Made by a program: the position numbers and the translations under genes. A stretch of 64,000 nucleotides of DNA from Candidatus Omnitrophota bacterium (lineage in GTDB: Bacteria > Omnitrophota > Gorgyraeia > Aquiviventales > Aquiviventaceae). The stretch lies in the NCBI GenBank assembly GCA_016209275.1, contig JACQWM010000053.1:11235-75234 (forward strand). Direction: 5' to 3'. The notes under the pieces were generated by a model, which saw only the letters and a list, made by a program, of their open reading frames with translations, was not told where the DNA came from and made no database searches. Of this stretch, positions 8,070-63,226 are shown piece by piece; within the stretch, counting starts at the first letter, position 1; each line of letters starts with the position of its first letter.

Positions 8070-9471
8070 TAGACGATTGATATCAGATATCGCGGCTCGA
8101 CCGCGATATCTGGTATCGCTTGTCTTTATCGTCATCCTTCAGGGATGCCGACCGCCTCAAGGTGTTGATGAGCGCCAATGGCCGCAGGTTGTGCTCGAGC
8201 CTACTGATCGGATTCTGATCCTTGCCCCCCACCCCGATGATGAGGTGATTGGTTGCGGCGGCATCATTCAGGAGGCCGTCGCCAAGCACCTGCCGCTGCG
8301 CATCGTGTTTCTGACTTATGGCGATAACAATCAGTGGTCCTTTCTCCTCTATCGATGGCACCCGGTCATCCTGCCCAAGGCGATTCGCAAGATGGGCCTG
8401 GTGCGGTATCACGAAGCGTTGGCAGCGAGCGTTGTGCTCGGAGTGCCCACAGAGCAATTAACCTTTCTCGGGTATCCGGATTTCGGCACGCTGCAGATCT
8501 GGACCTCGCACTGGGGCGACCGGAATCCCTTCCGCAGCTTGCTGACGCGGGTCACGGCGGTTCCCTACGACAACGCCCTGCGGTTCGGAGCGCCCTATAA
8601 AGGCGAAGAGGTCCTGCGGGATCTGACCACGGTCATCCGCGAATTCCGTCCCACGAAAATCTTCGTGTCCCATCCGGCGGACCACATGCCGGATCATCGA
8701 GCGCTCTATCTGTTTACTCGCGTTGCCCTGTGGGATGTGGAGAAGGAGATGCGCCCAACGCTGTATCCGTATCTTGTGCATTTCGTGCGCTGGCCAACGC
8801 CGCGCGGCTATCAACCCGCCGATTGGCTTGTTCCTCCATCGACGTTATTGTCGCAATGGCCATGGATCGTCCATTGGCTGACCCCGTCACAAGTCCAACG
8901 GAACTATCAAGCCATCAAAGCGCATCGGAGCCAATATCGGTATAGCGCGGCGTACCTGCTGTCCTTCATTCGGCCGAACGAGTTATTCGGTGACGCTCCG
9001 CCGATTACGTTTTCGTCAACGGCGTCCACGGCCTTAGAGCGCAAAGGGTTGATCAACCAGGCTCCGGAAGAGCTCACCGAGGAGGAACGAGCCACGTTCA
9101 TTGGCGTTGAAGTTCGCTCGGTGCAATTGGAGGACCGCGAACTCATCTATTCTATTGAGTGTTCCCGGCCGCTTGCCAAAGCCGTCGAGGCCTCGGTCTA
9201 TCTGTTCGGGTATCGCGCCGACCGGCCATTTGCGCAGATGCCGAAGTTGCATGTGAAAATCGGCGCCCTCTCCCACGAGGTGTTTGACCAAGATCGTTTG
9301 TTGCCGAATAAGGCGGTGACGCTGAGCCGCGGCCTGCGCCAGATCACCCTGCGCGTTTCGCTTGAGACTTTGGGCGAACCTCAGCGGATCTTGACCAGCG
9401 CGCGGACGTATCTGGGTGAGCTGCCGCTGGACTGGGTTTCCTGGCGCGTGCTTGAACTTCCTTCGCCGTAA
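8050..9471 (+). CDS. PIG-L/LmbE-family N-acetylglucosaminyl deacetylase lipoprotein with ~250-aa C-terminal extension
   Basis: Lipobox VILQGC; classic LmbE motif ILILAPHPDDEVIGCGG and HPADHMPDH. Start is ambiguous: ATG 8050 overlaps the GNAT gene, or TTG 8077 lies inside a palindromic repeat. Confidence 0.6.
   Translation: MASPSASRRLISDIAARPRYLVSLVFIVILQGCRPPQGVDERQWPQVVLEPTDRILILAPHPDDEVIGCGGIIQEAVAKHLPLRIVFLTYGDNNQWSFLLYRWHPVILPKAIRKMGLVRYHEALAASVVLGVPTEQLTFLGYPDFGTLQIWTSHWGDRNPFRSLLTRVTAVPYDNALRFGAPYKGEEVLRDLTTVIREFRPTKIFVSHPADHMPDHRALYLFTRVALWDVEKEMRPTLYPYLVHFVRWPTPRGYQPADWLVPPSTLLSQWPWIVHWLTPSQVQRNYQAIKAHRSQYRYSAAYLLSFIRPNELFGDAPPITFSSTASTALERKGLINQAPEELTEEERATFIGVEVRSVQLEDRELIYSIECSRPLAKAVEASVYLFGYRADRPFAQMPKLHVKIGALSHEVFDQDRLLPNKAVTLSRGLRQITLRVSLETLGEPQRILTSARTYLGELPLDWVSWRVLELPSP
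8075..8119. repeat. GATATC-unit palindromic element (locus A)
   Basis: GATATCAGATATCGCGG-ctcga-CCGCGATATCTGgTATC: a 17-bp inverted repeat with 5-nt loop and one mismatch. Confidence 0.8.
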
Positions 9472-16692: not shown

Positions 16693-17292
16693 ATGGGGAA
16701 ATCGCTCTGGGTCTTGGCCAGCCTGCTGGTTGTCGCACCGACGACGGCTGTGGCTTCCGCCGAGGCGGGAACGCCGGCACCCGATGTTCGCCTGATGGAT
16801 TCGCGCGGCACCGCCCGAAGCCTCTCGGAGTTCCACGGCAAGATCGTGGTGCTCGAATGGTGGAATCCGGACTGCCCCTTTGTCAAACGGCATTACGGTG
16901 GGGCGATGCAGCGACTGCAGGACACCTACACCGCGCGGGGCGTCATCTGGCTGATGATCAATTCCTCGGCTCCAGGCAAACAAGGCCGCCTCGCGCCGGA
17001 GGCGGCCAACACCTATGCGGCGACCCATGGGGTGAAGGCGACGGCCATGCTCTTGGACCCTGACGGCGCGGCCGGCCGGTTGTACGGCGCAAAGACGACC
17101 CCGCACATGTTCATCATCGATCCTCAAGGGACGCTCGCCTATGCCGGCGCCATCGACGATCATCCGGCCGTCGATCCGTCGGATCCTCCGCCGGCGTCCA
17201 ATTATGTGACGCAATCCCTTGAGGCGCTGCTTGCTGGCCGGCCGATTCCAGTGAGGACGACCACCTCGTATGGCTGTTCGGTCAAATACTAA
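16693..17292 (+). CDS. thioredoxin-fold redoxin family protein, secreted
   Basis: Signal peptide MGKSLWVLASLLVVAPTTAVASA; redoxin-like core LEWWNPDCPFV. Confidence 0.55.
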   Translation: MGKSLWVLASLLVVAPTTAVASAEAGTPAPDVRLMDSRGTARSLSEFHGKIVVLEWWNPDCPFVKRHYGGAMQRLQDTYTARGVIWLMINSSAPGKQGRLAPEAANTYAATHGVKATAMLLDPDGAAGRLYGAKTTPHMFIIDPQGTLAYAGAIDDHPAVDPSDPPPASNYVTQSLEALLAGRPIPVRTTTSYGCSVKY

Positions 17293-17308: not shown

Positions 17309-18142
17309 ATGCTCGACACGACGCTGGCATTATCAGGGCAGCTGAAGGAAACACTGGAAGCCATCGCGCGGAAGACGGCGTTCCGTCCGCAGATTGGGCT
17401 CGTGCTAGGATCCGGCCTCGGCGGACTGACGAAGTCGGTTCGCGTCGAGACGGAGATCCCGTACGAAGACCTGCCGCACATGCCCAAGGCGACCGCGCCC
17501 GGCCATGAGGGCAAACTCGTGCTGGGCACGATCAGCCAGCAGCGCGTGGCCGTGCTCGCCGGACGGTTTCATCATTATGAAGGCTATCCCATGTCCCAGG
17601 TCGTGTATCCGGTGCAGCTCGTGCGCGCGCTGGGAGCTGAGACGCTAATGCTGACGAGCATCGTCGGCGGCATGAATCCCGCCATGCTGCCCGGCTCGCT
17701 CGTGATGCTTGATGATCACATCAATTTCATGGGGGCGAATCCGCTCTTAGGGCCGAATGATGAGACGATCGGCCCGCGGTTTCCCGATATGTCGCAGCCG
17801 TATGATCCGGCCCTCCAGCAGTTGGCCCGCCAGGTGGCGGCCGAGCAGAAGATTCCGCTGACAGACGGCGTGTATGCGGCGGTGGCCGGGCCGAATCTTG
17901 AGACGCGCGCTGAATACCGCATGCTGCGCGGGATGGGGGCGGATGTGGTGGGGATGTCGATGGTGCCCGAAGTGCTGGCCGCCCGGCATGGCGGCTTGCG
18001 TGTGCTGGCTGTGGTGGTCGTTTCCGACGCGTGCGATCCGGATCACCTGAAGCCCGCCAACATCGAGGAGCTGCTTCGCATCGCTGCGGCCACCGAACCC
18101 AAGCTCACCAAGCTCTTGCAGGGCGTCATCTCCCGACTTTAA
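17309..18142 (+). CDS. mtnP: purine nucleoside phosphorylase family; S-methyl-5'-thioadenosine phosphorylase by context
   Basis: PNP/MTAP family motifs (GSGLGGL, VGMSMVPEV); immediately upstream of mtnA. Confidence 0.65.
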   Translation: MLDTTLALSGQLKETLEAIARKTAFRPQIGLVLGSGLGGLTKSVRVETEIPYEDLPHMPKATAPGHEGKLVLGTISQQRVAVLAGRFHHYEGYPMSQVVYPVQLVRALGAETLMLTSIVGGMNPAMLPGSLVMLDDHINFMGANPLLGPNDETIGPRFPDMSQPYDPALQQLARQVAAEQKIPLTDGVYAAVAGPNLETRAEYRMLRGMGADVVGMSMVPEVLAARHGGLRVLAVVVVSDACDPDHLKPANIEELLRIAAATEPKLTKLLQGVISRL

Positions 18143-18197
18143 CTGCACAGGCGATATCAGATATCGATTTCGATATCTGATATCGCTCTTGCAGTTG
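18141..18197. repeat. GATATC-unit palindromic element (locus B)
   Basis: aaCTGCAcagGCGATATCAGATATCG-attt-CGATATCTGATATCGCtctTGCAGtt: perfect 16-bp arms with an extended outer stem. Confidence 0.85.
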
Positions 18198-18203
18198 ACC
18201 TGA

Positions 18204-19280
18204 ATGCGAGTCAACGGTATCCCTTATCGCACTGTTTGGCTGGAAGGCTCGACGGTGCATCTGATCGATCAGCGCCGTCTGCCGGCGCGGTTTGAGATTC
18301 TTGAGCTGCCCACAGTCCAGCAGACGGCGGAGGCGATTCGCACTATGACCGTGCGAGGCGCTGGGGCCATTGGCGTCGCGGCCGGTTTTGCGATGGCGCA
18401 GGCGGCACTCCTGGCTCCGGCATCCGGCGTGCGCGAAGCGCTCGAGCAGGCGGCGGCGATCATCCGCGCCACGCGGCCCACCGCGCAGAACCTGTTTTAT
18501 GCGGTGCAGCGTATCGTCGACGGCACGCGGTCGGCCCATTCCGTCGACGAGATTCGACGGCGAGCCGTGGTGATAGCTCAACGCATGGCCGATGAAGACG
18601 CCGCCTCCGGCGAGCGCATTGGAATCGTGGGGGCTTCGCTCATCCGCGATGGGGCGTCCGTGATGACGCACTGCAACGCCGGGTGGCTGGCGTTTGCCGA
18701 TTGGGGCACGGCCTTGGCACCCATCTATGTCGCCCATCGAGCCGGCAAACGCGTGTCGGTGATCGTGAATGAGACGCGGCCGCGCGGGCAGGGGGCGAAG
18801 CTCACCGCCTGGGAACTCGGGCAAGAAGGTGTTTCGCATACGCTGATTCCCGATACCGCTGCTGGCTACGCGATGGCGCAAAAACTTGTGGATCTCATCA
18901 TCGTGGGCGCGGATCGCATCGCGGCCAACGGCGATGTGGCGAATAAAATTGGGACGTATGCGTTGGCCGTGTTAGCGCAGGCCCATCAGATTCCGTTCTA
19001 CGTTGCGGCTCCGACCACCACGATCGATGCCGCATGTCCTGAAGGCTCGAAGATTCCTATTGAAGAACGATCCGCTGATGAGGTCGTCTGGACATCAGGT
19101 GTGACCGATGATGGCGCAGAAACCCGCGTGCGCACCGCCCCGGAGCACACCCCAGCGCGCAACTGGGCGTTCGACGTGACACCGGCAGCGCTGATTCGCG
19201 GCCTGATCACCGATCGGGGGATGATTCGCCCTGAGCCTCAGGCGATCGCTGAGGTGATGACCGCGGCGGCGACTCGATGA
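18204..19280 (+). CDS. mtnA: S-methyl-5-thioribose-1-phosphate isomerase
   Basis: eIF-2B alpha/beta/delta-like MtnA family similarity across the full length. Confidence 0.8.
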   Translation: MRVNGIPYRTVWLEGSTVHLIDQRRLPARFEILELPTVQQTAEAIRTMTVRGAGAIGVAAGFAMAQAALLAPASGVREALEQAAAIIRATRPTAQNLFYAVQRIVDGTRSAHSVDEIRRRAVVIAQRMADEDAASGERIGIVGASLIRDGASVMTHCNAGWLAFADWGTALAPIYVAHRAGKRVSVIVNETRPRGQGAKLTAWELGQEGVSHTLIPDTAAGYAMAQKLVDLIIVGADRIAANGDVANKIGTYALAVLAQAHQIPFYVAAPTTTIDAACPEGSKIPIEERSADEVVWTSGVTDDGAETRVRTAPEHTPARNWAFDVTPAALIRGLITDRGMIRPEPQAIAEVMTAAATR

Positions 19281-21268
19281 CTCCTCTTGAGGCGCTCGTC
19301 GCCCGATCTCGACGCATTGGAGCGCAGGAGCGGTTGGGGCTCTTCGGCGGAGGCAACACCTCGATCAAATGCGCGCAGCCGGATCTCTTCGGCCGGCCGC
19401 AGGAGGTGCTGTGGGTCAAAGGCAGCGGCGCAGATTTGAACAATTGTTCCGCGCGGCATTTCGCTCCGCTGGCCCTCGCCCCGCTGCAGCGGATGGCTGC
19501 GCGCGCCGATATGAGCGATGAGGAGATGGTGCGCTTTCTTGAGCGCTGTCTGCTGGATCCGAAAGCGCCGCGCCCGTCGGTGGAAACGCTGCTCCACGCG
19601 TTTATTCCGCAGGCCTCGGTGGATCACACCCATGCCGATGCGATCCTCGCACTCGCCAATACCCGCCGCGGGCGGCACCTCACCCGACGGATTCTTGGTC
19701 CTGAGCTGTTATGGATCCCGTACATCCAGCCTGGCTTTCGGCTCTCGCGCTACGTCTGGGAGGCCTACCGCGATCAGCCACAAGCGCACGGGGCGGTGCT
19801 GGAGAAACACGGCCTCATCACCTGGGGCCCGGATGGGCGCACGAGCCTCAAGCGCACGATCGACGCGGTGTCCCGCGCCGAGCGCTTCATTCATGCCCGG
19901 CGGCGGAAACGATCATGGTCGTCCGTGGGATGCGCCGCACTCAGCCCGAACGAGCGCTCGGCCTGGTTGCGCCGGCGGTTGCCGGTGCTGCGGCGGGTGA
20001 TCAGCCAGCACCGGCGCATGAGCCTGACCGTGTGGGATTCGCCGGACATCCTGGAGTTTGTGAACGCCCGGCGGATGCCGCGAGTCGCCCGCATCGGTCC
20101 GGCGACGCCGGATCACATGCTGCGCACCAAACGCTTGCCGCTGATTGCCCGCGCATCCGACGACATGGCACGGCGGCTTCATCAGTATGCCGACGCGCAC
20201 CGACGCTATTTTCTCACGTATCGCCGCACAGGTCAGGCCATGCAAGACCCCTTCCCGCGCGTCATGCTCATTCCCGGCGTCGGCATGATCACGACAGGGA
20301 AGGATGCTGCCGAGACCGCGCGGGTGGCCATGATCTATCGGCACGCGATGGCCATCATGCGCGATGCCTCAACCGTCGGCGCCTATACGTCGGTGTCGGC
20401 GCGCGAGGCGTTCGGTGTAGAGTATTGGCCGCTGGAGTTGTATAAACTGACCCTCGCCCCGCCGGAGCCGGAATTCGCCCGGCAGATCGGCTTGATCACG
20501 GGAGCTGCCGGGGGCATCGGCCGCGCCATCGCGCACTGTCTGGCCAGCCGTGGGGCTTCGGTCATCGTGACCGATCTTCACGCCGCCGCCGTTGAGCAGC
20601 TCGCGGAGGCGATCAATCGGCGCGTGGGTCGTCGGTGTGCGCTCGGCTTAGGGATGGACGTGACCAGCGAACGCAGCGTGGACGCAGCGCTCGATCGCGT
20701 GCTCCGACAGTTCGGCGGCCTCGACTTTCTCGTGTCCAATGCCGGGATCGCGCACGTCGCGGCCGTGGATCGATTGGAGCTCTCGCAATGGGAACGCAGT
20801 CTGGCTGTCAATGCCACGGGCCATTTCTTGGTGTCGCGAGCCGTCGTGCGTTTGCTCAAGGCGCAGGGCCTGGGGGGTGCGCTCGTGTTTATTGCGTCAA
20901 AAAACGTCTTAGCCCCAGGCAAAGATTTCGGCGCCTATAGCGCGGCTAAAGCGGCGCAAACCCAGCTGGCCCGCATCCTGGCGATTGAAAACGGCGAACA
21001 TCAGATTCGGGTGAATCTGGTGAACCCCGATGGCGTCTTCGAGGGCTCGGGCTTGTGGAACACGATCAAGGCCTCTCGGGCGAAGTCCTATGGCATCACG
21101 CCCAAGGCGCTCGAATCGTATTATCAGGGCCGCAATCTCTTACAGGCGCGCGTGCTGCCGGAAGACGTGGCCGAAGCCGTCGCGTTTTTCATCTCGGCGA
21201 AATCGGCGAAAACCACCGGCTGCATCCTCACCGTCGATGGCGGAGTACGCGAGGCATTTCCGCGATGA
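19277..21268 (+). CDS. bifunctional class II aldolase / short-chain dehydrogenase (RhaEW-like fusion)
   Basis: N-terminal class II aldolase/adducin motif GGGNTS; C-terminal SDR with TGAAGGIGRAIA NAD(P)-binding motif, NAG and YSAAKAA catalytic motifs; ATGA coupling with mtnA and with the next gene. Confidence 0.75.
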   Translation: MTPLEALVARSRRIGAQERLGLFGGGNTSIKCAQPDLFGRPQEVLWVKGSGADLNNCSARHFAPLALAPLQRMAARADMSDEEMVRFLERCLLDPKAPRPSVETLLHAFIPQASVDHTHADAILALANTRRGRHLTRRILGPELLWIPYIQPGFRLSRYVWEAYRDQPQAHGAVLEKHGLITWGPDGRTSLKRTIDAVSRAERFIHARRRKRSWSSVGCAALSPNERSAWLRRRLPVLRRVISQHRRMSLTVWDSPDILEFVNARRMPRVARIGPATPDHMLRTKRLPLIARASDDMARRLHQYADAHRRYFLTYRRTGQAMQDPFPRVMLIPGVGMITTGKDAAETARVAMIYRHAMAIMRDASTVGAYTSVSAREAFGVEYWPLELYKLTLAPPEPEFARQIGLITGAAGGIGRAIAHCLASRGASVIVTDLHAAAVEQLAEAINRRVGRRCALGLGMDVTSERSVDAALDRVLRQFGGLDFLVSNAGIAHVAAVDRLELSQWERSLAVNATGHFLVSRAVVRLLKAQGLGGALVFIASKNVLAPGKDFGAYSAAKAAQTQLARILAIENGEHQIRVNLVNPDGVFEGSGLWNTIKASRAKSYGITPKALESYYQGRNLLQARVLPEDVAEAVAFFISAKSAKTTGCILTVDGGVREAFPR

Positions 21269-22080
21269 CGGCGGTGCCAGGTCCAATCCACGCCGTCATC
21301 CTCGGTGCAGTTGAGGGCTTGACGGAATTTTTGCCGGTGTCTTCCACGGGGCACTTGATTCTCGTCTCCCGCGTGCTGCGGCTGCAGGGCGCCGCCGTAG
21401 ACACGTTTGATGTCGTGATTCAAGCCGGGGCGTTGGTTGCCGTCGTGGGATTGTACCGCCGCCATGTCATGGCCATGGGGCGAGGTCTGCTTGGCCGAGA
21501 TGCCGAAGGCCAGGCGCTGCTCATCAAGGTGCTGATCAGTTTTCTGCCGGCGGCGATGGCCGGAGCAGCGCTGCATCATGCGATCAAGGCGCACCTGTTT
21601 CATCCCGGGGCCGTCATCGCCGCGATGGCGCTCGGCGGGTTGCTCATGATCGCGGTGGATCGCTGGTGCCGCCCTCAGCGCATCGCGTCGCCGCGCACCA
21701 TGATGTCCCTGACGAGGCATCAGGCGCTGATCATCGGCATCGCCCAGTGCGCGGCCCTGTGGCCTGGCACTTCGCGCTCGATGGCGACGATCCTGGCCGG
21801 TATAATGGTAGGGCTGCCGCTGGCTGCGGCCGCGGAGTACAGTTTTTTGCTCGCCCTGCCGACGTTGGGCGCCGCGACGCTGTTTGATGCCGTCAAGGGC
21901 GGTGCTACGCTGTGGCAGCAGATCGGCGGTCTCTCGATCCTCGTAGGATTTGTCAGCGCGGCGATCGTCGCTGCGGTTGCGGTTCGTGGCTTTGTCCAGT
22001 ATGTCAGCCGCCACGGCCTCGCACTGTTTGGATGGTACCGCGTGTTTGTGGCCGCCGTGGTGTGGGTCTATGGACGATAG
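21265..22080 (+). CDS. uppP: undecaprenyl-diphosphatase
   Basis: BacA/UppP signature EGLTEFLPVSSTGHLIL; 8 TM. Confidence 0.85.
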   Translation: MTAVPGPIHAVILGAVEGLTEFLPVSSTGHLILVSRVLRLQGAAVDTFDVVIQAGALVAVVGLYRRHVMAMGRGLLGRDAEGQALLIKVLISFLPAAMAGAALHHAIKAHLFHPGAVIAAMALGGLLMIAVDRWCRPQRIASPRTMMSLTRHQALIIGIAQCAALWPGTSRSMATILAGIMVGLPLAAAAEYSFLLALPTLGAATLFDAVKGGATLWQQIGGLSILVGFVSAAIVAAVAVRGFVQYVSRHGLALFGWYRVFVAAVVWVYGR

Positions 22081-22093
22081 GAGAAAACCATCC

Positions 22094-22654
22094 ATGAAAA
22101 CATCAACCCCTCGGCAACGCGCGATCTCTGCGAGGGATCCTTTGGGCTTCAAACGATACATCCGGAACATTCCGGATTTTCCAAAACCCGGCATCTTATT
22201 TCGCGATATCACGACGCTGCTCCGCAACGGGCCGGCGTTCCACAAGGCGATTCATGCGCTGGCTCAGCGCCATCACGGAACCAAGCCGGATGCGGTGGTG
22301 GCGATTGAGTCGCGCGGCTTGATCGTAGGCTCGGCCCTCGCCTATGAGCTTGGAGTCGGCGTCATCCCCGTCAGAAAGAAGGGCAAGCTGCCCCATAAGA
22401 CATTTCGCGCCAGCTACGAGCTGGAATACGGCACCGACACGCTGGAGATTCACCAGGATGGATTTTCGAGGGGCTCGCGCGTCCTCTTAGTGGATGACCT
22501 GCTGGCCACCGGCGGCACCATGGGGGCGACCATCGACCTCATTGAGCAATGCGGCGGAAACATTATCGAGCTCGCGTTCTTGATCGAGCTGACCGCGCTG
22601 GGCGGGCGCGAGCGCTTAGCACCCTATCCGGTGATTTCCTTGGTGCGGTATTAA
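22094..22654 (+). CDS. apt: adenine phosphoribosyltransferase
   Basis: PRTase motif VLLVDDLLATGGT; full-length APRT similarity; RBS AGGAG upstream. Confidence 0.85.
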   Translation: MKTSTPRQRAISARDPLGFKRYIRNIPDFPKPGILFRDITTLLRNGPAFHKAIHALAQRHHGTKPDAVVAIESRGLIVGSALAYELGVGVIPVRKKGKLPHKTFRASYELEYGTDTLEIHQDGFSRGSRVLLVDDLLATGGTMGATIDLIEQCGGNIIELAFLIELTALGGRERLAPYPVISLVRY

Positions 22655-22788: not shown

Positions 22789-22831
22789 GGCGATATCAGA
22801 TATCGAGCATTCGCTCGATATCTGATATCGC
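22789..22831. repeat. GATATC-unit palindromic element (locus C)
   Basis: GCGATATCAGATATCGAGC-attc-GCTCGATATCTGATATCGC: perfect 19-bp arms. Confidence 0.85.
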
Positions 22832-22837
22832 TCTTGC

Positions 22838-23788
22838 TTGATGGCTGAAAAACTTGTCATTATCGGTTCCGGTCCGGCAGGCCACACGGCGGCGATCTAC
22901 ACCGCCCGCGCCGCCTTATCCCCGGTGATGTTTGAGGGCTTCTCGGCCGGCGGCATCCCCGGCGGCCAGCTCATGACCACGACCGAGGTCGAAAATTATC
23001 CAGGATTTCCCGACGGGGTTGATGGGCAGGAGCTCATGGCCCACATGCGCAAGCAGTCGCTGCGGTTTGGCACGCGCATCTTCACGGAAGACGCCACACG
23101 TGTTGATCTCTCCTCTCGGCCGTTTACCGTGGCCTCCTCCGCGCATGAGGTGAAGGCCGAATCGATCATCGTGGCGGCCGGGGCGACGGCAAAGCGGTTG
23201 AACCTGCCGGGTGAGGCGAGATTATGGAATCATGGCATGTCCGCCTGCGCGGTCTGCGACGGGGCGCTGCCGGTGTTCCGCAACAAGCCGCTCGTCGTGA
23301 TCGGCGGCGGCGACTCGGCCTGCGAGGAATCGCACTTTTTGACGAAGTTCGCCTCGAGGGTGTACCTGGTGCATCGACGCGGCGAGTTGCGCGCCTCGAA
23401 GATCATGCAGGAACGGGTCTTGAAGGATCCGAAGATCGAGGTCATCTGGAACAGCGTGGTCGAGGATGTGCTGGGCAAGACCGCGGTCGAAGCGGTCCGG
23501 CTGCGCCACGCGCAAACGAATCAGACGCGCGAGCTGCCCTGCGGCGGCGTCTTTTACGCCATCGGCTTTACGCCGAATACGGCCATGCTTGCCGGCCAAG
23601 TCGAAACAGATAAGGACGGCTACATCATCACCAAACCGGGCTCAACGCAAACCTCGGTGCCCGGTGTCTTTGCCTGCGGCGATGTCCAAGATAAAAAATA
23701 CCGCCAGGCGATTACCGCCGCCGGCTCCGGCTGCATGGCCGCCATCGACTGCGAACGCTTCCTCGCTGAATCGGATCAGGCAGTTTGA
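22838..23788 (+). CDS. trxB: thioredoxin-disulfide reductase
   Basis: FAD/NAD(P) motifs [10 protein letters not shown] and GGGDSACEE; redox-active CAVCDG. Confidence 0.85.
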
Positions 23789-25511: not shown

Positions 25512-25547
25512 ACGATATCAGATATCGAATTCGATATCTGATATCGC
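25512..25547. repeat. GATATC-unit palindromic element (locus D)
   Basis: CGATATCAGATATCGAATTCGATATCTGATATCG: a perfect 34-bp palindrome. Confidence 0.85.
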
Positions 25548-25554
25548 TCTGCGC

Positions 25555-26154
25555 ATGTCGAGGATGAGTTACGCTCACACTGTGTCTTCAGACCTTCAAA
25601 CCGCCACCGGCATTCCCAACGGCAAATTGGGCATGTGGCTGTTTCTCGCGTCTGAGGTGATGTTTTTCACCGGGCTCATCGCCGCGTACATCGTCCTGCG
25701 CATGAGCCATGCGCACTGGCCCGGGCCGGCAGGGCAGCTGAGTGTCGTCTGGGGGACGGTCAACACGCTCGTGCTGATTTGCAGCAGCACGACGGTAGTG
25801 CTGGCTCTCGCCGCGGCTCAGCGGGGTGCGATGGGCCCGCTGCGCCTGTGGCTGCTCGTGACGGTCGCCTTAGGCGCGGCGTTCCTGGGCATTAAGGGGC
25901 ACGAGTACGCTGTCAAGTTCCACCACGGCATCGGGCCGTCGACGAACGTCTTCTGGTCGTGCTATTTTGCGCTGACCGGATTTCACGCGCTGCACGTGCT
26001 CGGGGGGATCGGGTTCAACCTGTATATCTTGGCCTTGACGCGCACGGAAGCGCTCTGGCAGGATGCGGGCCGCCGGCTGGAGTACGCCGGGCTCTACTGG
26101 CATTTCGTCGATATCGTCTGGATATTTCTGTTTCCACTGCTGTATCTGCTGTGA
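25555..26154 (+). CDS. heme-copper oxidase subunit III family protein
   Basis: 5-TM COX3-like similarity (LGMWLFLASEVMFF, HVLGG). Confidence 0.65.
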   Translation: MSRMSYAHTVSSDLQTATGIPNGKLGMWLFLASEVMFFTGLIAAYIVLRMSHAHWPGPAGQLSVVWGTVNTLVLICSSTTVVLALAAAQRGAMGPLRLWLLVTVALGAAFLGIKGHEYAVKFHHGIGPSTNVFWSCYFALTGFHALHVLGGIGFNLYILALTRTEALWQDAGRRLEYAGLYWHFVDIVWIFLFPLLYLL

Positions 26155-26451: not shown

Positions 26452-26487
26452 GCGATATCAGATATCGAATTCGATATCTGATATCGT
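26452..26487. repeat. GATATC-unit palindromic element (locus E)
   Basis: GCGATATCAGATATCGAATTCGATATCTGATATCG: identical to locus D; sits between convergent genes. Confidence 0.85.
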
Positions 26488-26489
26488 CG

Positions 26490-27359
26490 TTAGATCGAGA
26501 GGCTTGGAACCGGAAGACGGATCTTGCGCAGCGCCTCGACAGGATCCATCGCCGGCAGCTTCGCCGGGTTGCCTTGCGGCAACCGGATCCGCTTGGCCAG
26601 TCCCAACCAGGACAGGAGACGGATCGTCGCGTACGTCATGTCGAACTCCCACCAGCGCAAGCCATGCGCGGCCGAATGCAGATACGCATGGTGGTTGTTA
26701 TGCCAGCCCTCGCCGTACGACAGCAACGCGACCCACCAGTTGTTCGTGGAGCCCTCATTCGTGTCGAAGGTTTTGTAGCCCCACAGGTGCGAGGCGGAGT
26801 TCACCAGCCAGGTGGAATGCCAGACCACCGCGGTGCGGAGAAACACGCCCCAGATCACCCACGGCCATCCCCCCAGCGCTAGCAGGATGAGCCCGAGCAG
26901 CACCGTGTAGAGCACGTGGGTGCGTTCGATGAATTGGTGCACCCGATTGCGGGCCAGATCCGGCACATAGCGCTCATACTTGCTGGGATTGTCCAATACC
27001 TCATCGTATGGGAACAGCCACAGCATGTGCGCCCACCAGAACCCCTTATTCGGGCTGTGGGGGTCTTGCGGCCGGTCAGAAAACGCGTGGTGCACCCGGT
27101 GCGTCGCGACCCACTTCACCGGTCCCCCTTGAACCGACAAGGAGCCGATGACGGTGAGCGCATACTCGAGCCACCGCGGAACATGAAAGCTGCGGTGGGC
27201 CAGCAGCCGGTGGTAGCAGAGGGTGACGCCTAACCCGGTGAGCAGCTGGAGCCAGAAGAAGATCCAGAACCCTGTCCAGGTGAATGTCCAAGGTGCTAGC
27301 ACCGCGCCCGCGTGGATCAGCACCACCCCGAACACAATCGACCACTTCATCTTCGCCAT
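26490..27359 (-). CDS. acyl-CoA/acyl-lipid delta-9 fatty acid desaturase
   Basis: Three His boxes HRLLAH, HRVHH and HNNHH in a 4-TM scaffold. Confidence 0.8.
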   Translation of the reverse strand: MAKMKWSIVFGVVLIHAGAVLAPWTFTWTGFWIFFWLQLLTGLGVTLCYHRLLAHRSFHVPRWLEYALTVIGSLSVQGGPVKWVATHRVHHAFSDRPQDPHSPNKGFWWAHMLWLFPYDEVLDNPSKYERYVPDLARNRVHQFIERTHVLYTVLLGLILLALGGWPWVIWGVFLRTAVVWHSTWLVNSASHLWGYKTFDTNEGSTNNWWVALLSYGEGWHNNHHAYLHSAAHGLRWWEFDMTYATIRLLSWLGLAKRIRLPQGNPAKLPAMDPVEALRKIRLPVPSLSI

Positions 27360-50280: not shown

Positions 50281-50376
50281 AGTTCGATATCAGATATGAA
50301 ATAGCCATTTCATATCTGATATGAAACAGGCAATCCATATCAGATATCAAAACGCCATTTCATATCTGATATCGCC
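50281..50376. repeat. cluster of GATATC-unit palindromic elements (locus F) adjacent to the tRNA-Leu 5' end; an additional half-site at 50181-50191 abuts the tRNA 3' end
   Basis: TTCGATATCAGATATGAAAT-agcc-ATTTCATATCTGATATG ... CATATCAGATATCAAAAcgccATTTCATATCTGATATCGCC: two tandem degenerate hairpins. Confidence 0.8.
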
Positions 50377-61186: not shown

Positions 61187-63217
61187 ATGACGCGGACCTT
61201 CACGATTTCTTCTTCAGCGAGCCTCAAGTTTCACCTCGACTTGGAGCAGGATCTCAACAACGCCCAGCGCGCCGCGGTGACCTGCGGCGAGGGGCCGAAG
61301 CTCGTCATCGCGGGCGCCGGCTCGGGCAAGACCCGCACGATCACCTATCGGGTGGCCTTCCTCATCGCCAAGGGAATCCACCCCAGCCAGATCCTCTTGG
61401 CCACCTTTACCAATAAGGCCGCGCGGGAAATGCTCAGCCGCGTCGAACAATTGACCGGCGGCGACGCCAGCGGCCTGTGGGGTGGGACATTCCACGCCAT
61501 CGGCAATCGGCTGCTGCGCCAGCACGGGACGCTGGTGGGGCTGCAGCCGAACTATTCCATTCTGGATGAGGAAGATCAGCGGGACTTGATCAAAGTCTGC
61601 ATCACCGAGGCCAAGGTGAAGGTTGAAGAGAAACGGTTTCCAGCGCCGTCGCTCATCGGGGATCTGATCAGCATGGCGTTCAACCTGCAGAAACCTCTGG
61701 CGGCTGTCATCGAGGCCCGCGCGCCGCATTTTGGCCTGTGGGCGCCGGAGCTTGAGCAGGTGGCCGCGCGCTATGAGGCGAAGAAGCGGTCGACGAATGC
61801 GCTGGATTACGACGATCTGCTAAAGTTTTGGCTGAAGCTGCTGGAGACCAAGCCTGAGATGGCGGAGCGGCTGAGTCGGCAGTTTCGCCACATCCTCGTC
61901 GATGAGTATCAAGATACGAATGTGGTCCAAGCGCAGATCGTCGAACGTCTGGCCCAGCGCAATGGCCGCAATCTCATGGTCGTCGGAGACGATGCGCAGA
62001 GTATTTACCAGTTCCGCGGGGCCAACTATGACAACATCCTCAAGTTTCCCGAACGCAACCCCGGCACGGAGATCTTCAAGCTGGAAACCAACTACCGCTC
62101 CACCCCGGAAATCCTCGAGTTCACCAACGCGAGCATCCTGCATAACCAGCACCAGCACCGCAAGACCTTGGTCGCGCAGCGCGACCGGGGCCGCCTGCCG
62201 GTCGTGGTCCCCGCGAACGACATGTATCAGGAAGCGGCGTTTGTCGCCGAGCGGATTTTACAATTGCGCGACGACGGCATTCCCTTGGAGGAGATGGCCG
62301 TGCTCTACCGGGCGCACGCGCACTCCTCGATGCTGCAGGCCGAGCTGATCAAGCGCAACATCCCCTACGACGTGCGCTCCGGGGTGCGGTTTTTCGAGCA
62401 AGCGCACATTAAAGATGTGGTGGCGTATCTGAAGGTGCTCGACAATCCGCATGATGAGATCGCCTGGCGGCGGCTGTGGCTCATGCTGCCGAGAGTCGGC
62501 CATGTGACGGCCGCACGGCTCTGGGAGGCGATTGCCAGCGCCGTGAATCCATTCGATGCCGCGCTGACCGAGGCGGTGGCTCGCACGCTGCCGCCGGCCG
62601 CCCAGGCCTACTACAAACGATTTCAGCACGACCTGCGACGGCTCTCGGCGTCCCGCGAGGATGTCTCGCCGCAGGAGCTGATCCGGGCGGTCATGGAGAG
62701 CGGCTATGCGGATTATCTGCGCGCGAAGTACGACGCGTTTCAATCAAGGCTGGAAGATCTGCAGCAGCTTGCGGTCTTTGCGCGGCCGTATCGCAGCCTG
62801 CGCAGCCTGCTCTCGGAGCTGGTGTTGCTCGGCGAGCTGTACGGCCAAGAGGTTGGTCCGGGTTCGGCCGAGACCGAACGGCTCATCCTCAGCTCGGTGC
62901 ATCAAGCCAAAGGATTGGAGTGGCGCGTGGTCTTCGTCATCCGGATGTGCGAGGGCAGCTTTCCGTCGGAGATGGCGTTGCGCGAAGAGCGCGGGGAAGA
63001 GGAAGAGCGGCGGATTTTTTACGTGGCCACGACCCGTGCCAAAGATGAGCTGTACATCACGCATCCGCTCATCGATCTCTCCCCGCGCGGCAACAGCCAG
63101 CTCCTGCTGCAACCCTCGCGCTTCCTGCGCGAGATCCGCTTTACCCTCTATGAGCAAGGCCAGATTGATCAGACGGTTGATATCAGATATCATCAGTCTG
63201 ACGCCGATGATATCTGA
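61187..63217 (+). CDS. UvrD/PcrA/Rep-family ATP-dependent DNA helicase
   Basis: Walker A GAGSGKT, motif II VDEYQDTN, later helicase motifs; the 3' end reads into a palindromic repeat (locus G). Confidence 0.85.
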   Translation: MTRTFTISSSASLKFHLDLEQDLNNAQRAAVTCGEGPKLVIAGAGSGKTRTITYRVAFLIAKGIHPSQILLATFTNKAAREMLSRVEQLTGGDASGLWGGTFHAIGNRLLRQHGTLVGLQPNYSILDEEDQRDLIKVCITEAKVKVEEKRFPAPSLIGDLISMAFNLQKPLAAVIEARAPHFGLWAPELEQVAARYEAKKRSTNALDYDDLLKFWLKLLETKPEMAERLSRQFRHILVDEYQDTNVVQAQIVERLAQRNGRNLMVVGDDAQSIYQFRGANYDNILKFPERNPGTEIFKLETNYRSTPEILEFTNASILHNQHQHRKTLVAQRDRGRLPVVVPANDMYQEAAFVAERILQLRDDGIPLEEMAVLYRAHAHSSMLQAELIKRNIPYDVRSGVRFFEQAHIKDVVAYLKVLDNPHDEIAWRRLWLMLPRVGHVTAARLWEAIASAVNPFDAALTEAVARTLPPAAQAYYKRFQHDLRRLSASREDVSPQELIRAVMESGYADYLRAKYDAFQSRLEDLQQLAVFARPYRSLRSLLSELVLLGELYGQEVGPGSAETERLILSSVHQAKGLEWRVVFVIRMCEGSFPSEMALREERGEEEERRIFYVATTRAKDELYITHPLIDLSPRGNSQLLLQPSRFLREIRFTLYEQGQIDQTVDIRYHQSDADDI

Positions 63218-63226
63218 TATCGCCTT
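63178..63226. repeat. GATATC-unit palindromic element (locus G)
   Basis: GATATCAGATATCATC-agtctgacgcc-GATGATATCTGATATC: perfect 16-bp arms; overlaps the uvrD-like stop codon. Confidence 0.8.

Follow-up and report, generated by a model that had tools for sequence, protein, structure and literature searches.

We analysed a stretch of 64,000 nucleotides from Candidatus Omnitrophota bacterium (contig JACQWM010000053.1; hereafter the window), in which five co-directional genes occupy positions 17309-22654 of the + strand. In order, they encode a PunA-type nucleoside phosphorylase from the PNP (purine-nucleoside phosphorylase) family (277 aa, 17309-18142), the 5-methylthioribose-1-phosphate or 5-deoxyribose-1-phosphate isomerase MtnA (358 aa, 18204-19280), a 663-aa fusion of a class II aldolase with a short-chain dehydrogenase/reductase (SDR; 19277-21268), the undecaprenyl-diphosphatase UppP (21265-22080) and the adenine phosphoribosyltransferase Apt (22094-22654). 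A preliminary description of the locus had read it as an operon for the salvage of 5'-methylthioadenosine (MTA) resembling the dihydroxyacetone phosphate (DHAP) shunt. Its coordinates and the fusion motifs that it listed, GGGNTS (residues 24-29), TGAAGGIG (408-415) and YSAAK (554-558), were confirmed. It had also described the genes as chained by ATGA overlaps, which holds in part: 4-nt overlaps of this kind exist only at the mtnA/fusion and fusion/uppP junctions, while the phosphorylase gene and mtnA are separated by a 61-nt gap that contains a perfect 17-bp hairpin, and uppP and apt by a 13-nt gap. The start of apt at 22094 was set from the gene call on a second contig (L088) together with a GGAG 10 nt upstream.

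The fusion protein comprises three parts. Residues 1-210 (19277-19906, + strand) form a RhaE-type, metal-dependent class II aldolase domain, matched by Pfam Aldolase_II at residues 7-196; residues 211-395 (19907-20461) form a well-folded middle domain with an invariant PDH motif; and residues 396-663 (20462-21268) form a classical SDR domain, matched by adh_short at residues 406-587 and by adh_short_C2. In addition to TGAAGGIG, the SDR domain carries SNAG at 487-490, the tetrad N512/S541/Y554/K558, and D433 at the end of beta2, which by the established SDR cofactor rule would mark an NAD-type rather than an NADPH-type site. When the N-terminal 400 residues were searched alone, the NCBIfam matches at family level were RhaEW models only, with marginal matches to MtnB (E = 3e-4, over about 35 residues) and to the ribulose-1-phosphate aldolase family NF053831 (E = 0.027). 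The aldolase does not belong to the FucA-like Ald2/DrdA family, and a fold search did not separate FucA-like from RhaD-like specificity.

Among the accompanying genes, the isomerase exceeded the cut-off of the MtnA model TIGR00512 (377 vs 279 bits), scored 399 bits with PRK05720 and stayed below the cut-off of the ribose-1,5-bisphosphate isomerase model (208 vs 314 bits). Apt passed TIGR01090 (222 bits vs a cut-off of 186), and UppP, which matched Pfam BacA with 232 bits, fell slightly short of the NCBIfam uppP cut-off (258 vs 262 bits). The phosphorylase, previously taken to be mtnP-like, proved to be of the PunA type instead, as it passed the purine-nucleoside phosphorylase model PRK08202 (339 bits vs a cut-off of 218) and failed the MTA phosphorylase (MTAP) model TIGR01694 (86.3 vs 274.85 bits). 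It has the fold of the trimeric PNPs, including the human enzyme and the closest PDB chains 4lna, 4m1e and 6tk9, and the residues that bind phosphate and ribose in human PNP (S33, H64, R84, H86, Y88, M219 and S220) are retained in it.

The window phosphorylase and three syntenic orthologues nonetheless differ from human PNP at five positions, N243D, H257I/V, F200L, A116I and A117V, with Asp243 and Ile257 in the window protein. Asp at position 243 is also found in the three PDB chains and in MTAP/MtnP, even though the window protein fails the MTAP model. His257 of PNP is the ligand of the 5'-OH group, and its replacement by Ile or Val would fit a 5'-deoxy or 5'-methylthio substituent. Unlike the wild type, human PNP carrying the double substitution E201Q:N243D cleaves substrates based on adenosine (PMC2799393). 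Together these residues fit a phosphorylase predicted to cleave 5'-deoxy- or 5'-methylthio-adenosine, and the linked apt gene agrees with the release of adenine by this enzyme.

To place the fusion among its relatives, we surveyed 168 homologous loci, made up of 80 genome loci, 80 metagenome loci and further contigs encoding homologues; both scans used two peptide patterns and took the best 80 matches each by similarity to the window protein. Neighbouring genes were scored by tblastn with the window phosphorylase, MtnA, UppP and Apt and with B. subtilis RhaA and RhaB, the latter two having first been identified beside yuxG in the B. subtilis locus (L039). Neighbours were also sought by unbiased clustering of all open reading frames (ORFs). 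A midpoint-rooted neighbour-joining tree of the 162 distinct fusion sequences split cleanly into two clades. Clade A, with 40-46% identity to the window protein, holds proteins from Bacillales, including B. subtilis YuxG, from Paenibacillus and from soil metagenomes. The window protein itself falls in clade B, whose members show 42-100% identity to it and come from Omnitrophota, Gemmatimonadota/Longimicrobium, Dehalococcoidia and other Chloroflexota, Thermoanaerobaculia and Nitrospirota. Apparent 1000-aa triple fusions at two loci (L060 and L063) were rejected, since frame checks showed mere upstream extensions of the ORF.

Ten alignment positions were near-fixed and clade-specific when the 96 clade A sequences were compared with the 66 of clade B. 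In window-protein numbering, with the clade A residue in brackets, these are A120 (Pro) in the aldolase domain, adjoining the metal ligand H119; T277 (Cys), within an invariant G-x-A-x-PDH motif, and H356 (Arg) in the middle domain; and L500 (Thr), N512 (Leu in 96/96), H516 (Tyr), P547 (Ala), F551 (Ala), Q563 (His) and F588 (Leu) in the SDR domain, where N512 occupies the canonical position of the tetrad Asn. The clade A signature motifs are HTHP, AACPDH, YHR, VLxxGYF, AGK and HLAR, and the window protein differs from clade A at all ten signature positions. A known structure, limited to the aldolase domain and without an assigned function, carries the clade B-type motif HSHA. Throughout clade B, position 541 holds Ser or Thr and D433 is invariant. 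Among the residues invariant in both clades are E103, H117, H119, H178, D279, H280, D433, Y554 and K558, from which an active metal-dependent lyase linked to an NAD-type SDR is expected in either clade, with specificities that differ between the two. The clade B signature was identical in members that are linked to mtnA and in members that are not, so the activity is probably the same throughout the clade.

The two clades also kept different genomic company. In clade A (97 loci, 65 of them with at least 3 kb on both sides), rhaB or rhaA lay within 8 kb of the fusion in 59 of the 65, and mtnA was beside the fusion in 0/97. Its recurrent neighbours, a kinase (69 loci), an isomerase (67 loci), a DeoR regulator, a LutA-like gene, sugar ABC genes and a mutarotase-sized gene, were never found beside clade B fusions. 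Among the 66 clade B loci there was no match to rhaA or rhaB, even at E = 1e-6, and tblastn with the same queries gave none in the 64-kb window. Instead, mtnA was the most recurrent, and the only recurrent, neighbour of clade B fusions. It lay directly upstream in 11 of the 48 loci with at least 1.5 kb of upstream sequence, with a median gap of -39 nt in the all-ORF clustering, and was linked to the fusion in two further loci, one cut off upstream (L094) and one with divergent orientation (L119), giving a total of 12-13. The earlier proposal that the fusion is linked to mtn rather than rha genes thus holds across its relatives, and the neighbourhood survey, in which orthologues beside rhaA or rhaB numbered 0/66, left it standing.

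Consistent with a non-random gene order, the array phosphorylase-mtnA-fusion-(uppP)-apt was repeated in four related Omnitrophota metagenome-assembled genomes (MAGs; L001, L002, L009 and L089) whose fusions share 66-75% identity with that of the window. The mtnA-fusion pair was kept down to 47-53% identity, in two Gemmatimonadota genomes (L015 and L060) and several metagenome contigs. In a more distant Omnitrophota locus (L032, 51% fusion identity) the order was MTAP-mtnA-fusion-apt, with a true MTAP in the phosphorylase slot (TIGR01694, 298 vs 275 bits), and at L119 the fusion stood divergent from mtnA and from a fragment of an MTAP whose truncated match scored 266 bits. The phosphorylase slot of clade B clusters is therefore a case of non-orthologous displacement between MTAP and PNP-like enzymes. 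The apt gene followed the fusion in all four related MAGs and in L032, so the Apt linkage that had been noted in the window persists even where uppP is missing and the fusion leads directly to apt. UppP, present in the close Omnitrophota loci, is probably a passenger.

Clade B fusions unlinked to mtnA stood in heterogeneous, housekeeping-like contexts rather than in sugar operons, among them queA/tgt/secDF, a VIT1-family gene, an amidohydrolase gene, and an acyl-CoA dehydrogenase with a sulfite-reductase-like gene. NCBIfam models applied to the Gemmatimonadota and metagenome neighbours named only MTAP and an unrelated thiL, with no further pathway genes. In two clade B loci (L171, 8152-9852; L172, 8114-9811), a stand-alone fusion lay between acyl-CoA dehydrogenase and sulfite/nitrite-reductase-like (NIR_SIR) genes, a possible link to sulfur metabolism. 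In addition, three Dehalococcoidia clade B loci (L025, L026 and L035) encoded Ldh_2, a GlcD-like FAD-linked oxidase, a thiamine pyrophosphate enzyme and an SBP_bac_5 transporter component within about 2-8 kb of the fusion, with LutA-like matches farther out, which may point to local processing of a 2-hydroxy or short-chain acid product.

The characterised relatives of the fusion are the RhaEW proteins (Caur_2283 of C. aurantiacus and YuxG of B. subtilis), which convert L-rhamnulose-1-phosphate to DHAP and L-lactate with NAD+ (Rodionova et al. 2013; PMC3870299). Within them, RhaW oxidises lactaldehyde to lactate; NADH gave no activity, and without NAD+ no DHAP was formed (PMC3870299). The window fusion shares their layout of class II aldolase, middle and SDR domains, their metal and catalytic residues, the NAD-type Asp and the Tyr/Lys pair. 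It differs in falling into a separate clade, with ten fixed differences across both catalytic domains, and in its surroundings, as clade B was never beside rhaA, rhaB, rhaM, DeoR regulators or transporters and had mtnA as its recurrent partner. These observations suggest that the window fusion belongs to a distinct RhaEW subfamily and is probably not a rhamnulose-1-phosphate enzyme, the database name being an over-annotation. In the source MAG the fusion is annotated as 'bifunctional rhamnulose-1-phosphate aldolase/short-chain dehydrogenase', and NCBI and JGI name clade B proteins 'rhamnulose-1-phosphate aldolase/short-chain (or alcohol) dehydrogenase' with no rha genes in any sampled clade B locus; this probably reflects a systematic over-annotation that stems from TIGR02632.

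A different known system accounts better for the gene content of the cluster. In the DHAP shunt, MtnP, or MtnN with MtnK, is followed by MtnA and then by the FucA-like aldolase Ald2/DrdA, and the route handles both MTA and 5'-deoxyadenosine (PMC13474568, PMC6079011, PMC10986504). The window has a matching trio of phosphorylase, MtnA-type isomerase and a gene of the class II aldolase superfamily, comparable to MtnP-MtnA-Ald2 of R. rubrum and R. palustris, MtnK-MtnA-Ald2 of extraintestinal pathogenic E. coli and DrdK-DrdI-DrdA of B. thuringiensis, and the pathway logic of adenine release, isomerisation and cleavage to DHAP plus an aldehyde is alike. The window differs from these systems in that its aldolase is of the RhaE family and not FucA-like, its phosphorylase is PunA-type rather than MtnP, and apt is included in the cluster. 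Moreover, the aldolase is fused to an SDR that would handle the aldehyde, a step without an identified enzyme in known shunts: according to a 2026 review, the enzyme that reduces 2-methylthioacetaldehyde had yet to be identified (PMC13474568). A 2026 preprint, which does not mention the fusion, reports MTA phosphorylase from 70-99% of the remainder of class Gorgyraeia (Omnitrophota). The preliminary description had taken a single-polypeptide form of the aldolase and reductase steps of the DHAP shunt to be undescribed, and our literature search found no paper tying RhaEW-like fusions to mtn genes, although its coverage was incomplete and absence is not thereby proven.

We consider it moderately likely, with a probability of roughly 0.6, that the cluster encodes a DHAP-shunt variant for salvage of the S-adenosylmethionine (SAM) by-products MTA and/or 5'-deoxyadenosine, with the RhaE-like aldolase replacing Ald2. 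Gene identities, synteny, the clade split and residue signatures were observed directly, and the catalytic steps are all read from sequence and gene context. The PunA-type phosphorylase, with its adenine-type Asp and hydrophobic 5' pocket, would convert the nucleoside to adenine and 5-methylthio- or 5-deoxy-ribose-1-phosphate; Apt would convert adenine to AMP, and MtnA would turn the sugar phosphate into its ribulose-1-phosphate form. The aldolase domain of the fusion is predicted to cleave the latter to DHAP and 2-(methylthio)acetaldehyde or acetaldehyde, taking the place of the FucA-like Ald2/DrdA, after which the fused NAD-type SDR domain would dispose of the aldehyde on the same polypeptide. 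The core of the earlier DHAP-shunt idea survives in this scheme. MTA, its proposed substrate, fits, and 5'-deoxyadenosine is at least as likely. The substrate may be either or both, given that known shunt enzymes take both and that the housekeeping contexts of clade B suit a universal by-product. For the SDR step, the analogy with RhaW within the same family and the NAD-type site incline us towards an oxidative reaction that gives 2-(methylthio)acetate or acetate, rather than one that yields the alcohol.

Several points weigh against this interpretation, of which stereochemistry is the main biochemical hurdle and had been missed previously. RhaD-type enzymes act on the 3R,4S isomer. DrdA, like FucA, makes and cleaves the 3R,4R (D-erythro) isomer, and both 5-methylthioribulose-1-phosphate and 5-deoxyribulose-1-phosphate are D-erythro compounds (PMC6079011). 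The RhaE substrate (3R,4S) and the MtnA products (3R,4R) thus do not match, the implied clade B substrate has the opposite C4 configuration, and a change of C4 stereopreference relative to RhaE must be assumed. The fusion also passes the RhaEW model TIGR02632 (707.5 bits vs a cut-off of 567.75). About three quarters of clade B loci do not adjoin mtnA, and within the window uppP sits between the fusion and apt and interrupts the salvage genes. The five genes are themselves embedded in a co-directional run of about 15 kb of unrelated genes, so the limits of the operon are undefined, and a promoter and terminator scan found nothing that marks them. Upstream, the run encodes an HlyD-type protein, an ABC-2 exporter, TatD, a histidine kinase and a secreted redoxin of the AhpC/TSA type; the products encoded downstream of the cluster are a thioredoxin-reductase-like protein, a DUF3332 protein and a COX3 protein. 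Furthermore, the sample leaves out RhaEW of Actinobacteria, Alphaproteobacteria and Bacteroidetes as well as the characterised Chloroflexus enzyme. Finally, the RhaW precedent may not transfer to clade B, where the tetrad Asn (Leu in RhaW) and six more fixed differences keep reduction plausible.

This last point opens the closest alternative, in which all steps are as proposed except that the SDR works as a reductase and forms 2-(methylthio)ethanol from 2-(methylthio)acetaldehyde, or ethanol from acetaldehyde; the fusion would thereby become a single-polypeptide aldolase and reductase of the R. rubrum/E. coli-type shunt. Known DHAP shunts finish at 2-methylthioethanol via an alcohol dehydrogenase that has yet to be identified, and the canonical N-S/T-Y-K tetrad of the clade B SDR is typical of carbonyl reductases; together with the other SDR differences from RhaW, such as H516 (Tyr in RhaW), this means that the oxidative precedent need not apply. 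The sole assays in the family, on the other hand, found NAD+-dependent oxidation to the acid and none with NADH (PMC3870299), and D433 would indicate an NAD-type rather than an NADPH-type site. The preliminary description had favoured reduction to 2-(methylthio)ethanol, a claim that is unsupported and conflicts with these assays, even if the direction is left open by the clade B differences; we regard the reductive form as possible but doubtful. A route for ribose would change the substrate instead: adenosine would yield adenine and ribose-1-phosphate, MtnA ribulose-1-phosphate, the aldolase DHAP and glycolaldehyde, and the SDR glycolate, as in the ribulose-1-phosphate aldolase branch of the haloarchaeal pentose bisphosphate pathway. 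Such a route would suit a phosphorylase of the general PNP family that is not an MTAP, the existence of an NCBIfam ribulose-1-phosphate aldolase family with a faint match to the fusion, and the GlcD-like FAD oxidase and Ldh_2 genes near some clade B fusions; B. subtilis MtnK/MtnA, moreover, are reported to be active on ribose (Nakano 2013a). However, the 5'-OH ligand His257 is Ile or Val in 4/4 syntenic orthologues, L032 and L119 have true MTAPs in the corresponding slot, the isomerase is recognised by the MtnA equivalog model, and the cluster contains neither a ribose-1-phosphate kinase nor a sugar transporter, which makes ribose catabolism unlikely.

The two remaining explanations concern the fusion itself, and we judge both to be very improbable. 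It could be a genuine RhaEW, an L-rhamnulose-1-phosphate aldolase/L-lactaldehyde dehydrogenase with incidental mtnA adjacency, as its score with TIGR02632, the NCBI and JGI names, the three-part architecture and 40-46% identity with rha-linked proteins such as YuxG would have it. Yet neither rhaA, rhaB nor any other recurrent clade A neighbour occurs in any of the 66 clade B loci, ten clade-specific residues are near-fixed, and the adjacency to mtnA recurs in two phyla, with different phosphorylases and orientations. The 2013 definition, besides, has RhaEW always encoded in rha loci, with rhaA or rhaI, rhaB or rhaK, rhaM, a transporter and a regulator (PMC3870299). Alternatively, the N-terminal domain might be an MtnB-like dehydratase or epimerase acting on 5-methylthioribulose-1-phosphate, with the SDR acting on the resulting diketone in a new branch of methionine salvage. 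The sole non-family NCBIfam matches counted for the N-terminal domain were indeed to MtnB models, but these were marginal and short, the nearest characterised relatives are aldolases, and the cluster contains no mtnC, mtnD or mtnW-like genes.

The DHAP-shunt reading of the window invites a broader and more tentative proposal, which we put forward as possible rather than probable: that the whole of clade B, in at least five bacterial phyla and probably in Thermoplasma, is an unrecognised 5-deoxy-/5-methylthio-D-ribulose-1-phosphate aldolase fused to an NAD+-dependent aldehyde dehydrogenase and defines an oxidative DHAP shunt. If so, this shunt would convert SAM by-products to DHAP, acetate or methylthioacetate, and NADH; clade B would have arisen from RhaEW, or given rise to it, through a switch of C4 stereospecificity; and thousands of 'rhamnulose-1-phosphate aldolase/SDR' database entries would be misnamed. 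On the DHAP-shunt reading of the window, a known pathway would run in a variant form, with a separate and misnamed subfamily of an enzyme family that is itself already known. For MTA and 5'-deoxyadenosine, the DHAP shunt is the most widespread means of disposal, and many genomes have no recognisable Ald2/DrdA. If a second aldolase family, only distantly related and fused to an aldehyde oxidoreductase, took part, the gaps of both the missing aldolase and the missing aldehyde enzyme would be closed in several little-studied groups, namely Omnitrophota, Gemmatimonadota and possibly also Dehalococcoidia, Thermoanaerobaculia and Nitrospirota. This would also put right a systematic naming error by which clade B organisms falsely seem to catabolise rhamnose, and would offer two naturally occurring sister clades, told apart by ten signature residues, in which to study a switch of C4 stereochemistry in class II aldolases and the switch of an SDR between aldehyde oxidation and reduction.

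Some minor features of the locus were also noted. The hairpin between the phosphorylase gene and mtnA, which folds at -39.7 kcal/mol (z = -9.4), was considered as a riboswitch or attenuator and rejected, since its sequence recurs as a dispersed intergenic repeat. This palindrome, which resembles repetitive extragenic palindromic (REP) elements, consists of the unit GCGATATCAGATATCGA paired with its own reverse complement 2-8 nt away, forming perfect 17-bp hairpins. Copies in the window lie at 8077-8119, 18151-18186, 22790-22831, 25512-25547, 26452-26487, 50284-50375 and 63207-63223, in the gaps between the ends of genes that converge or run in the same direction, among them the gap right behind apt; 24 strand matches were found at three or fewer mismatches, compared with 0.16 expected. 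Among the other fetched loci, the exact GCGATATCAGATATCGA motif occurred only in L088, a contig that carries the same cluster with a 100% identical fusion. A different palindromic pair, GGTATCTGATACC ... GGTATCTGATACC, occupies the same phosphorylase/mtnA junction in one of the related Omnitrophota MAGs (L002, 6895-6938), and the type and position of the element seem conserved at this junction while the sequence has drifted.

In addition, thiol and oxidative-stress genes flank the cluster in several MAGs (window 16693-17292 and 22838-23788; L001 1-1462; L002 5451-6062 and 11802-16093). They include genes for a secreted AhpC/TSA redoxin, a thioredoxin-reductase-like Pyr_redox_2 protein, MsrA/MsrB, a DsbH-like thioredoxin and a Cu/Zn superoxide dismutase, and may represent a conserved methionine/sulfur redox neighbourhood or mere synteny. 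The Omnitrophota phylum is usually described as anaerobic, and the window encodes two O2-dependent functions, with a cytochrome c oxidase subunit III gene at 25555-26154 (+ strand) and a fatty-acid desaturase gene at 26490-27359 (- strand).

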